Shown piece by piece: positions 29,801 through 30,094 of a DNA stretch of 57,040 nucleotides. Origin of the DNA: Candidatus Omnitrophota bacterium (lineage in GTDB: Bacteria; Omnitrophota; Gorgyraeia; Tantalellales; Tantalellaceae). The stretch's first letter is position 1; every line of letters starts with the position of its first letter. The stretch spans positions 1 to 57,040 of the forward strand of contig JAYEOV010000063.1 of the NCBI GenBank assembly GCA_034723315.1, in the 5' to 3' direction. The notes beneath the pieces were generated by a model, which saw only the letters and a program-made list of their open reading frames with translations, made no database searches and was not told where the DNA came from. Position numbers and translations under genes: made by a program.

Positions 29801-30094
29801 CTATTTAACGAAAAACGCGCCGTCTTTGCATTGGTCCTTAGCGACACCTCCGGTCCGGCATCTGTTCGTTGCCATGCTTCCGCTCTTGCAAACATCCGTT
29901 CCCCCGGCGACGTTGCCGATACTGCATCCCAGTGTTGCCGTTCGGCCGCTGGAGCATTGGCCGCCGGCGATCGCGCCCACATCGCAAAGCTGTCCGGCAT
30001 TCGAGCCTGACTTGCAATTGAACGCCTGTGCTTCTTCCCTTGAAACTCCGTTCAATCTATAAATAACAGGCGGGACATACTTCTTTTTCTCCAT
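29801..30094 (-). CDS. Putative RiPP precursor peptide, 97 aa, with seven CxxG repeats
   Basis: GAGGAGG SD before ATG 30094; leader MEKKKYVPPVIYRL; core CKSGSNAGQL/CDVGAIAGGQ/CSSGRTATLG/CSIGNVAGGTDV/CKSGSMATNR/CRTGGVAKDQ/CKDGAFFVK; directly after the PqqD gene. Confidence 0.85.
   Translation of the reverse strand: MEKKKYVPPVIYRLNGVSREEAQAFNCKSGSNAGQLCDVGAIAGGQCSSGRTATLGCSIGNVAGGTDVCKSGSMATNRCRTGGVAKDQCKDGAFFVK

Follow-up and report, generated by a model that had tools for sequence, protein, structure and literature searches.

A predicted precursor of an enzyme-tailored ribosomal peptide, with seven C-x-x-G-x-x-A/F units, in a radical-SAM gene cassette of an Omnitrophota bacterium

We analyzed a 57,040-nucleotide stretch of DNA from an uncultured Candidatus Omnitrophota bacterium (contig JAYEOV010000063.1), hereafter the window, which carries on its minus strand a small gene whose product joins a short leader to seven Cys-containing repeat units. 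The gene belongs to a same-strand string running from 35947 to 27884, in which neighbors overlap or are separated by gaps of no more than 19 nt. Within 8 kb this string holds the small gene itself, a PqqD-family recognition element (RRE), two radical S-adenosylmethionine (SAM)/SPASM enzymes, an HprK-like putative kinase, a peptidase, a nucleoside triphosphate (NTP) transferase and an ATP-binding cassette (ABC) exporter (Table 1). Judged from its neighbors and relatives, the small gene very probably encodes the precursor of a ribosomally synthesized peptide that is modified post-translationally (a RiPP) and made by this cassette, i.e., the raw material of an enzyme-tailored natural product.

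Table 1. Coordinates of the precursor gene, its parts and the other genes of the cassette in the window.
Feature	Position	Strand	Basis or description
Accessory CxxCxxCC (YkgJ-type) Zn/Fe-binding protein	35171..35947	minus	PF03692, E 4.9e-05
Radical SAM/SPASM enzyme, ScmE-like	34058..35158	minus	PF04055, PF13186; TIGR04250, 217.7 bits, E 2.1e-64
Radical SAM/SPASM enzyme, ScmF-like	32929..34074	minus	PF04055, PF13186; TIGR04251, 297.2 bits, E 1.9e-88
HprK-like P-loop protein (ScmC-like), putative peptide kinase	32113..32925	minus	TIGR04352, TIGR04249
MsbA-like ABC exporter, fused transmembrane and nucleotide-binding domains	30395..32131	minus	PF00664, PF00005
Discrete PqqD-family RRE, 91 aa	30105..30380	minus	PF05402, 60.4 bits, E 2.2e-16
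Shine-Dalgarno sequence GAGGAGGAG	30098..30106	minus	upstream of precursor ATG
Precursor peptide gene	29801..30094	minus	97 codons + TAG, ATG at 30094
Leader, residues 1 to ~24-26	30094..~30017	minus	translation
Leader recognition motif Y6-V-P-P-V-I-Y-R-L14	30053..30079	minus	family leader logo
Core array, seven C-x-x-G-x-x-A/F units	29804..30016	minus	core residues ~25-97
Soluble archaeal/ER-type signal-peptidase-like (S26/S24) putative leader peptidase	29020..29781	minus	TIGR02228, PF00717
NTP_transf_5 nucleotidyltransferase, uncharacterized	27884..29023	minus	PF14907, 151.1 bits, E 5.2e-44
VanZ-family membrane protein, end of gene string	27129..28001	minus	PF04892, E 9e-08; NF037970

The precursor gene is preceded by a strong Shine-Dalgarno sequence, GAGGAGGAG, which overlaps the stop codon of the PqqD gene and whose GGAGG core ends 5 nt 5' of the ATG. 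The N-terminal part of the peptide reads MEKKKYVPPVIYRLNGVSREEAQAFN and is followed by the seven Cys-initiated units; the leader starts M-E-K-K-K-Y-V-P-P-V-I-Y-R-L (translation of 29801-30193, minus strand). In the program-made list of open reading frames (ORFs), the gene's place is taken by a 130-aa ORF that begins at an ATG at 30193 and would overlap the PqqD gene, and a 326-aa peptidase ORF (29020..30000) crosses the precursor in another frame. Alignments of orthologues put the starts at 30094 for the precursor and at 29781 for the peptidase, in agreement with an earlier note on this DNA, which held that the gene was hidden inside a longer ORF and under a false extension of the peptidase. 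The genome holds a single copy of the precursor. Scans of positions 26900-36400 gave 8 promoter-like sites (9.8 ± 3.2 in shuffles) and 13 terminator-like sites (10.9 ± 4.0 in shuffles), neither number being above chance, and this includes a promoter-like site at 30217..30189, upstream of the precursor.

In the core, Cys stands at residues 27, 37, 47, 57, 69, 79 and 89, i.e., with gaps of 10, 10, 10, 12, 10 and 10 residues. Gly occupies the third position after the Cys (+3) in all seven units and Ala the sixth (+6) in six of them, the last unit having Phe; the earlier note had described the Shine-Dalgarno sequence, the leader, the spacing and both positions in these terms, and was right in every detail. 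When the 73-residue core was shuffled 1,000,000 times, Gly fell at +3 of all seven Cys in 5 shuffles, Ala at +6 of six or more units in none, and five or more gaps of exactly 10 residues arose in 1. The window has 360 stop-to-stop frames that reach 60 aa or more, and only two of them, that of the precursor and one of 2690 aa, contain four or more CxxG motifs. The repeat pattern is beyond chance. Tandem Repeats Finder detected no DNA repeat scoring 30 or more, indicating that the period is maintained by selection on the protein rather than by recent duplication. AlphaFold2 modeling of the peptide with 50 relatives gave a mean predicted local distance difference test (pLDDT) value of 53.9, and most of residues 41-97 fell below 50. 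Thus, no confident core fold emerged, and the beta-helical fold envisaged in the earlier note was not reproduced; the model has neither helix nor strand elements and is not informative on the modified product. As an observation apart, the window and the related loci L018, L020, L021 and L031 share a fourth unit of 12-13 rather than 10 residues, and this long unit (29887-29922, minus strand, residues 58-69 in the window) forms a conserved 'hinge' that splits the array 4 + 3.

Orthologues of the precursor were found through one of the radical-SAM genes, termed ScmF-like after its best NCBIfam match. Among 401 genomes of the same phylum, 16 had a match to this protein, including 5 of 24 other genomes of the same family, and extended loci around ScmF-like matches (n = 13) were examined. 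The gene order of four loci (L018, L019, L020 and L021) is that of the window: ScmE-like, ScmF-like, HprK-like, ABC, PqqD, peptide, peptidase and NTP transferase. All 4 same-family loci long enough to include the position have a peptide ORF between the PqqD and peptidase genes; the L022 contig stops within the ABC gene and is outside this count. The orthologous peptides of L018-L021 are 80-100 aa in length, their ATGs are preceded by AGGAG- or GGAG-type Shine-Dalgarno sequences (GGAGG/AGGAG in L018 and L019, AAGGAG in L020), and further syntenic orthologues occur in L031-L036. An alignment of five sequences showed that M1, K3, Y6, P9, Y12 and A24 of the leader are invariant, as are most Cys and their Gly, while nearly all other core positions vary. 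Nonsynonymous divergence (pN) was lower than synonymous divergence (pS) in 21 of 21 peptide pairs, with synonymous sites saturated. These comparisons indicate that the precursor ORF is a real, conserved gene.

The peptide also belongs to a much wider family. A word-index search against 5.8 billion proteins returned no match beyond the peptide itself, Pfam gave no match to it, and its ESM Atlas neighbors are unnamed clusters, each made up of 53-429 'hypothetical proteins'. When 1.84 billion cluster representatives were searched with a profile built from the five peptides, 203 matched at E <= 1e-3, 22 of them at E <= 1e-10. The matches are mostly 60-160 aa long; 135 of the best 150 do not exceed 160 aa, and 128 of these 135 combine [YFW]xxP with at least three CxxG motifs. 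We rejected the 7 short matches without this combination, a set that includes unrelated tandem-repeat proteins, and set aside the long matches P0016, P0018, P0043, P0080, P0083 and P0124, which are unrelated tandem-repeat proteins as well. One 149-aa match, P0021, has a family-type leader and four units followed by an additional C-terminal stretch, which we take to resemble the C-terminal part of a Lon-type protease; the gene call is presumably chimeric or frameshifted.

Unit statistics were obtained from 83 of the 135 short matches, selected by a narrow leader pattern, and the leader logo, tail and last-unit counts from the 128. Among the 83 peptides, Gly is found at +3 for 493 of 519 Cys (95%), and +6 is Ala in 57% and Pro in 23%, so that one or the other occupies this position in 80% of 492 units. 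Of 410 gaps, 254 show a period of 10 and 96 a period of 11, and peptides have 3-12 units, with a mode of 6. Ala and Pro together account for +6 in 48% of last units compared with 82% of middle units (128 peptides). Counted from the last Cys, the chain ends at Gly +3 (four residues) in one of the 128 peptides, after five or six residues in none, and exactly at +6 in 24. The unit seems to need residues through +6, since chain ends cluster there and not before. Altogether, the alignments point to a family signature of C-x-x-G-x-x-[A/P] with a period of 10-11, of which the window peptide is a typical member, and the decamer C-x-x-G-x-x-A picked out by the earlier note is the window's version of this conserved unit.

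The leader shows a second conserved signature. Y6 and P9 are invariant in the five sequences and in 50 aligned relatives, and the consensus of the 128 peptides is K(-3)..Y-E-x-P-x-[LVIA]-x-D-L. Relative to the Tyr (94%), this consensus has Lys at -3 (74%), Glu at +1 (73%), Pro at +3, a hydrophobic residue at +5, Asp at +7 (54%) and Leu at +8 (75%), and the first Cys follows 18-23 residues after the Tyr. YxxPx[LVIFA] is described as the RRE-bound motif in the leaders of lasso peptides and of the linear polyphosphorylated peptides (LPP) of Bacillota (PMC13381572), and the window PqqD protein matches two lasso PqqD models, NF033530 and NF033536, with E values from 1e-07 to 7e-07. A predicted complex of this PqqD protein with leader residues 1-40, the kind of modeling suggested in the earlier note, scored 0.49, compared with 0.11 for the best of 3 controls; the runs agreed in at least 80% of contacts, with a partner pLDDT of at least 53. 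This mark is reached by 58 of 80 solved complexes and by 2 of 110 mismatched pairs, yet passing scores of 0.60 or less include only 7 of the 80 solved complexes and both passing mismatches. The prediction was graded as 'weak support', and the pass may reflect memorized structures, because RRE-YxxP complexes have already been solved.

We also examined how regularly such peptides accompany the radical-SAM enzymes outside the closest genomes. A ScmF-like profile of 13 rows (L018 was omitted, as its frame holds a TAA) found at least 582 relatives when one genome per species was searched, and the best 80 loci were examined. ScmF-like loci come from Omnitrophota, deltaproteobacterial-type (Desulfobacterota-type) metagenome-assembled genomes (MAGs), Methanogenium and Methanospirillum, and also from Margulisiibacteriota, Anaerolineae (Chloroflexota), Bacillota and others. 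A small ORF with at least three CxxG motifs was present in 53 of the best 80 loci, nearly always with a Y-E-x-P leader. This count used no leader filter, and minus-strand ORFs in L097 and L102 look unrelated, although a typical ORF is present in each of these loci too. In the 45 loci that span 12 kb or more, two radical-SAM regions were detected in 39, PqqD in 38, ABC in 27, the NTP transferase in 24, the HprK-like gene in 19 and the peptidase in 9; all of these counts are lower bounds from tblastn with the window's own proteins at E <= 1e-5. The comparative evidence supports a RiPP-type precursor with a YxxP leader beside a PqqD-family RRE and two radical-SAM/SPASM enzymes, as the earlier note had proposed. 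The Cys decamers travel with the radical-SAM enzymes, as the two co-occur here, while LPP clusters, for which the main text of PMC13381572 names no radical SAM, have variable cores.

Several of these loci depart from the window arrangement. Loci L075-L077 from Syntrophaceae/Syntrophobacter MAGs encode paired short peptides with three C-x-x-G-x-x-[A/P] units of period 9, and two or three tandem precursors with different cores occur in L049, L053, L056, L058, L061, L075-L077, L084 and L093. In L018, the ScmF-like gene (6748-7848, plus strand) has one in-frame TAA, the rest of the cassette and the peptide being intact; the TAA may reflect a sequencing error, or the gene may be split or a pseudogene. 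In L024, from a genome of the same class, the peptide gene is placed between the two radical-SAM genes, and the ScmF-like protein (7394-9919, plus strand; 841 aa in total) is fused to a C-terminal extension of ~470 aa. The extension holds a Gly-rich ..LDVGSGLG.. stretch, which we take to be typical of SAM methyltransferases.

The two radical-SAM proteins of the window are distinct, cross-matching by tblastn at only 24-31% identity. The nearest solved structure of the ScmE-like protein is SkfB (6efn, E 7.1e-18) and that of the ScmF-like protein is PqqE (6c8v, E 1.3e-15); the nearest structures of the pair include PqqE, SkfB, SuiB, CteB and anSME, at E 1e-18 or weaker. The HprK-like protein, to which Pfam has no match, carries APSGGGKST and matches HprK-related kinase A (TIGR04352) at E 2.3e-08 (33.5 bits, cut-off 200) and ScmC (TIGR04249) at E 6.9e-07 (28.9 bits, cut-off 125). 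The best NCBIfam match of the exporter is MsbA (TIGR02203; 232 bits, cut-off 602), and no peptidase domain was detected in it by the Pfam/NCBIfam scan. The separate peptidase, with the discrete PqqD gene two genes upstream, matches sigpep_I_arch (TIGR02228) at E 4.2e-08 and PF00717 at E 0.004, and its Ser10 (in G-x-S-M-x-P), His50-Arg51 and Gly66-Asp67-Asn68 do not vary in any of the 6 orthologues aligned. Its C-terminal extension of ~150 aa gave no match to Pfam or to a PqqD profile. The NTP transferase is syntenic in L019 and L020.

For the CxxCxxCC protein, at the upstream end of the string, the 5.8-billion-protein collection yielded only 4 homologues. A candidate for the second RRE of the earlier note, its C-terminal half may resemble an RRE: residues 117-258 align with a PqqD profile by hhalign over 38 columns (E 0.0037, probability 9%), and an AlphaFold2 model (mean pLDDT 47.1) shows strands followed by three helices in residues 149-241. 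The same residues 117-258 have no Pfam match, and Foldseek with the model against the PDB found nothing at E <0.1, the best value being 0.1. At the other end, the true start of the VanZ gene is probably internal, and its link to the cassette is uncertain; it is syntenic only in L020 among L018-L030 and was seen in 3 of the 45 long loci. Just downstream of VanZ lie two adjacent ORFs of 118 and 121 aa (26335-27081, minus strand) that, judged by translation, are single-domain response-regulator-like. A polysaccharide/glycan locus (36093-45144, minus strand) lies directly upstream of the cassette and encodes a DegT aminotransferase, a PIG-L deacetylase, WbqC, glycosyltransferases (GT) of families GT4, GT9 (heptosyltransferase-like), GT4 and GT2, a methyltransferase and a further GT4; the DegT, PIG-L and WbqC genes adjoin the cassette in the closest genomes (L018, L020, L021 and L022). 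At its edge, the window also contains a giant RHS/YD-type ORF of 2666 aa (80-8080, minus strand), whose only Pfam match is to RHS repeats (PF05593, E 2.2e-11).

The gene content recalls the SynChlorMet cassette, which was reportedly put forward by Haft and Basu in 2011 as a bioinformatic prediction. As in that cassette, a single string in the window combines two radical-SAM/SPASM genes with a PqqD gene, an HprK-like gene and the gene of a small Cys peptide. The best NCBIfam matches are ScmE, ScmF and ScmD, ScmC is second-best for the HprK-like protein, and ScmA (TIGR04252) is the only family matched by the peptides. The window peptide scores 9.9 bits (E 0.87) against ScmA and its closest orthologues 10.9-23.8 bits (L021 highest, 23.8), and 12 of 50 relatives match at E <= 0.01, the best at 4.3e-09. 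These matches suggest that the window peptide is distantly related to ScmA, a precursor that had been predicted before; the earlier note missed this relationship along with the LPP-pathway gene set. The window differs from the SynChlorMet cassette in its core of 7 units of 10 residues, compared with an ScmA profile of 49 positions, in the leader of its family (K-x-x-Y-E-x-P-x-Φ-x-D-L, where Φ is hydrophobic), and in the addition of a peptidase, an NTP transferase, an ABC pump and a CxxCxxCC protein. In the open-access literature, we found no report of the chemistry or product of a SynChlorMet cassette.

The added genes resemble those of LPP clusters. According to PMC13381572, LPP clusters of Bacillota combine a kinase, a signal-peptidase-like peptidase, an RRE, an NTP transferase and a pump with variable cores and often lie inside capsule loci, the RRE must present the leader for cleavage, and the peptidase LppS needs the triad S29/H68/D93. 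Ser10/His50/Asp67 of the window peptidase, an archaeal-type S26 enzyme encoded near a discrete RRE, matches this triad. By family description the window also has, as candidate counterparts, a kinase-like protein (a weak match, as given above), an NTP transferase as well as an MsbA-like exporter, its leader shares Y-x-x-P-x-[hydrophobic], and the cassette adjoins a polysaccharide locus. In contrast, the LPP leader consensus YxxPxVLxHQxIxFETxxS, which goes with phosphorylation of core Ser3, is otherwise absent from the window; the main text of PMC13381572 mentions neither radical SAM nor SPASM, and the cores described there are not Cys-periodic. The hosts differ as well, Bacillota for LPP and Omnitrophota for the window. 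Based on gene content, the locus is best described as a hybrid of a SynChlorMet-type radical-SAM core and an LPP-type processing and export set; by analogy, the latter predicts Ser phosphorylation and RRE-assisted leader removal.

Characterized peptide systems share further features with the locus. Like the sactipeptide systems StsA/StsB and streptosactin/GggB (type 2), the window has SPASM enzymes, an RRE and potential Cys donors in the core. The acceptors in StsA are Gly, StsB making three Cys-Gly sactionines (PMC10288494), and streptosactin has a pair of unnested four-residue sactionine rings in series (PMC9389541). These systems have 2-3 rings and a single maturase, compared with potentially 7 rings and a conserved pair of enzymes here; joint action of two radical-SAM enzymes is described for thuricin CD (PMC12093266). 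The radical-SAM proteins score below the cut-offs of the characterized maturase families (StsB 625, AlbA 850, PapB 340, SkfB 300): the ScmE-like protein reaches 127 bits for StsB, 77 for AlbA, 90 for PapB and 77 for SkfB, and the ScmF-like protein 86 for AlbA and 84 for StsB. The ranthipeptide freyrasin offers another parallel, in that one SPASM enzyme, PapB, works iteratively on a tandem short Cys motif. That motif is reportedly Cys-x3-Asp (CxxxD), with side-chain carbon links in contiguous units. The window units are 10-residue decamers, and the PapB score is far below its cut-off (90 versus 340 bits). Lasso clusters of the paeninodin type resemble the window in the YxxP leader, the discrete PqqD-like RRE, the HprK-like kinase and the nucleotidyltransferase; in contrast, Pfam and NCBIfam scans of 10 cassette proteins revealed neither a macrolactam synthetase nor a B2 cysteine protease. 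The Methanococcus CrpA/CrpC system (PMC13692751) was set aside, as it concerns a different Cys-rich protein.

Taking these lines of evidence together, we propose that the discrete PqqD RRE would bind the leader through Y6-x-x-P9-x-I11...L14 and present the long, disordered core to the ScmE/ScmF-like pair, which would act once per C-x-x-G-x-x-A unit, most likely by forming a thioether from the Cys sulfur to a nearby carbon. The Gly(+3) alpha-carbon would be our first choice of acceptor, giving seven unnested four-residue sactionine rings, and Ala/Pro at +6 the second. The HprK-like kinase may phosphorylate a Ser near the start of the core, by LPP analogy perhaps Ser29 of the first C-x-S-G, a residue that all five closest orthologues share. 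The Ser/His/Asp peptidase, with the help of the RRE, could cut off the leader somewhere between Ala24, which is invariant, and Cys27; another group may be attached by the NTP transferase, and the MsbA-like pump would export the product. We consider it likely that the radical-SAM enzymes act on the Cys units. A thioether explains most simply why each unit has a single near-invariant Cys and a partner position at a set distance from it, with StsA, streptosactin and thuricin CD as precedents, and the chain of reasoning up to and including the thioether seems to us slightly better than an even call. That the bond runs specifically from Cys to Gly(+3) is more tentative, and we regard it as somewhat unlikely.

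Several results weigh against this proposal. All SynChlorMet-family scores fall below their curated cut-offs (ScmF 297 of 400, ScmE 218 of 400, ScmD (TIGR04248) 45.9 of 100, ScmC 28.9 of 125 and ScmA 9.9 of 35), so that naming the proteins by these families is not licensed. The ScmF-like protein scores higher for the heme-pathway enzymes AhbD (157 bits) and NirJ2 (132) than for the sactisynthases AlbA (86) and StsB (84), and the ScmE-like protein higher for WgkB (138), NirJ2 (134) and MftC (132) than for StsB (127), with PapB at 90; sequence similarity, as far as these profiles go, does not single out thioether chemistry. Even the nearest solved structures, PqqE and SkfB, match at only E 1e-15 to 1e-18. 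With two conserved positions (+3 and +6) and two enzymes, more than one chemistry is conceivable. The seven-residue minimum tail points to a role for +6 that a Cys-to-Gly(+3) ring by itself would not account for, and a link to +6 or a second reaction there is a serious competitor, the counterpoint being that +6 is less conserved in the last unit (48% versus 82%). The complex prediction for PqqD and the leader was weak and gave no contacts. The kinase assignment is weak as well (33.5 bits, no Pfam match), Ser at +2 of the first unit is found in only 36% of the family, and of the 45 long loci only 9 gave a match to the peptidase, 19 to the kinase and 24 to the NTP transferase, as lower bounds. 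None of the sequencing runs listed for the locus is recorded as RNA.

A different bond from the same Cys would accommodate part of this evidence. If the thioether or other link ran to Ala/Pro at +6 (at the alpha-carbon or, as a ranthionine, at a side-chain carbon), the core would form seven 7-residue rings with Gly +3 only as a turn residue. Ala or Pro at 80% of the +6 positions and the 24 of 128 peptides that end exactly there, with none ending five or six residues from the last Cys and one at Gly +3, speak for this arrangement, and beta- and gamma-carbon thioethers are made by NxxcB, PapB and CteB (PMC9389541). Position +6 is, however, far less conserved than Gly +3, Ala and Pro drop to 48% in the last unit, and Val, Gln, Gly, Phe and Ile occur there, the window's own Phe among them. 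To our knowledge, there is no precedent for Pro as a thioether acceptor, and we counted this against the link. On balance, a Cys-to-+6 link appears rather unlikely. We assign a comparably low likelihood to chemistry without any crosslink, i.e., per-unit epimerization (L to D), Cys oxidation to formylglycine or a thioaldehyde-type product, or a C-C bond, with the Cys left free, in disulfides or bound to metal. Both enzymes score as high or higher against AhbD, NirJ, MftC, WgkB, PqqE and anSME as against sactisynthases, and two distinct enzymes kept across phyla at 24-31% identity suggest two different reactions. Set against this, Cys-donor crosslinks in the characterized cases (StsA and streptosactin) are marked by such a near-invariant Cys in each unit and a partner at a fixed position. 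The motif of anSME substrates is C/S-x-P/A-x-R, and it is not present.

It is also conceivable, though distinctly improbable, that the radical-SAM step is secondary and that the product is an LPP-type peptide, whose defining step would be that the HprK-like kinase (poly)phosphorylates a core Ser, a nucleotide- or sugar-linked group then being added and the product exported, perhaps to the envelope. All five genes of the LPP set are there, a long polysaccharide locus borders the cassette, as LPP clusters lie in capsule loci (PMC13381572), and Ser29 is invariant in the five closest peptides. Wide conservation is, however, a feature of the Cys decamer and of the two radical-SAM enzymes; in fewer loci we found the kinase (19 of 45), the NTP transferase (24) and the peptidase (9), the extended leader consensus (..VLxHQxIxFETxxS) is absent in the window, and the sugar genes are syntenic only within the closest genomes. 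Finally, the ORF might be a chance frame, or an unmodified peptide rich in Cys and Gly that binds metal or has a structural role and is part of the operon by position only. This would fit the absence of a Pfam or above-threshold NCBIfam family for the peptide. Slot, leader and unit are nevertheless conserved across genera and phyla, the Shine-Dalgarno sequence is strong, pN is below pS in every pair, shuffles reproduce the pattern at most 5 times per million, and the peptide co-occurs with the RRE and radical-SAM enzymes, which together make an unmodified peptide very improbable.

Returning to the thioether proposal, a fuller picture can be drawn, which taken as a whole we consider speculative and unlikely. 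An obligate SPASM pair would form one ring per unit by a so far undescribed iterative chemistry, yielding either an unnested Cys-to-Gly sactionine rod or a new Cys-to-(+6) link, and the product would then be phosphorylated, perhaps linked to a glycan by way of the LPP-type enzymes and the adjoining sugar locus, and exported as a component of the Omnitrophota cell envelope. Peptides of the SynChlorMet type had already been predicted; what is new here is the expanded seven-decamer core together with an LPP-type processing set in Omnitrophota.

The locus represents a large and mostly unnamed peptide family, with 203 profile matches among 1.84 billion representatives and at least 582 ScmF-like loci, whose precursor genes are currently missed by the curated models of Pfam and NCBIfam. 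The pattern C-x-x-G-x-x-[A/P] with a period of 10-11, combined with the leader K-x-x-Y-E-x-P-x-Φ-x-D-L, is usable as a search pattern for their annotation, and the window holds a compact, complete version of the cassette, which makes it a good template for heterologous reconstitution. The window brings the SynChlorMet prediction, said to date from 2011, together with the 2026 LPP pathway and its signal-peptidase-type leader protease, two systems that we did not find together in the open-access literature. It suggests that the LPP-type processing set reaches beyond Bacillota and can pair with radical-SAM chemistry. If true, the reading of the core as a series of iteratively formed rings would give a product class for the whole SynChlorMet-type superfamily.

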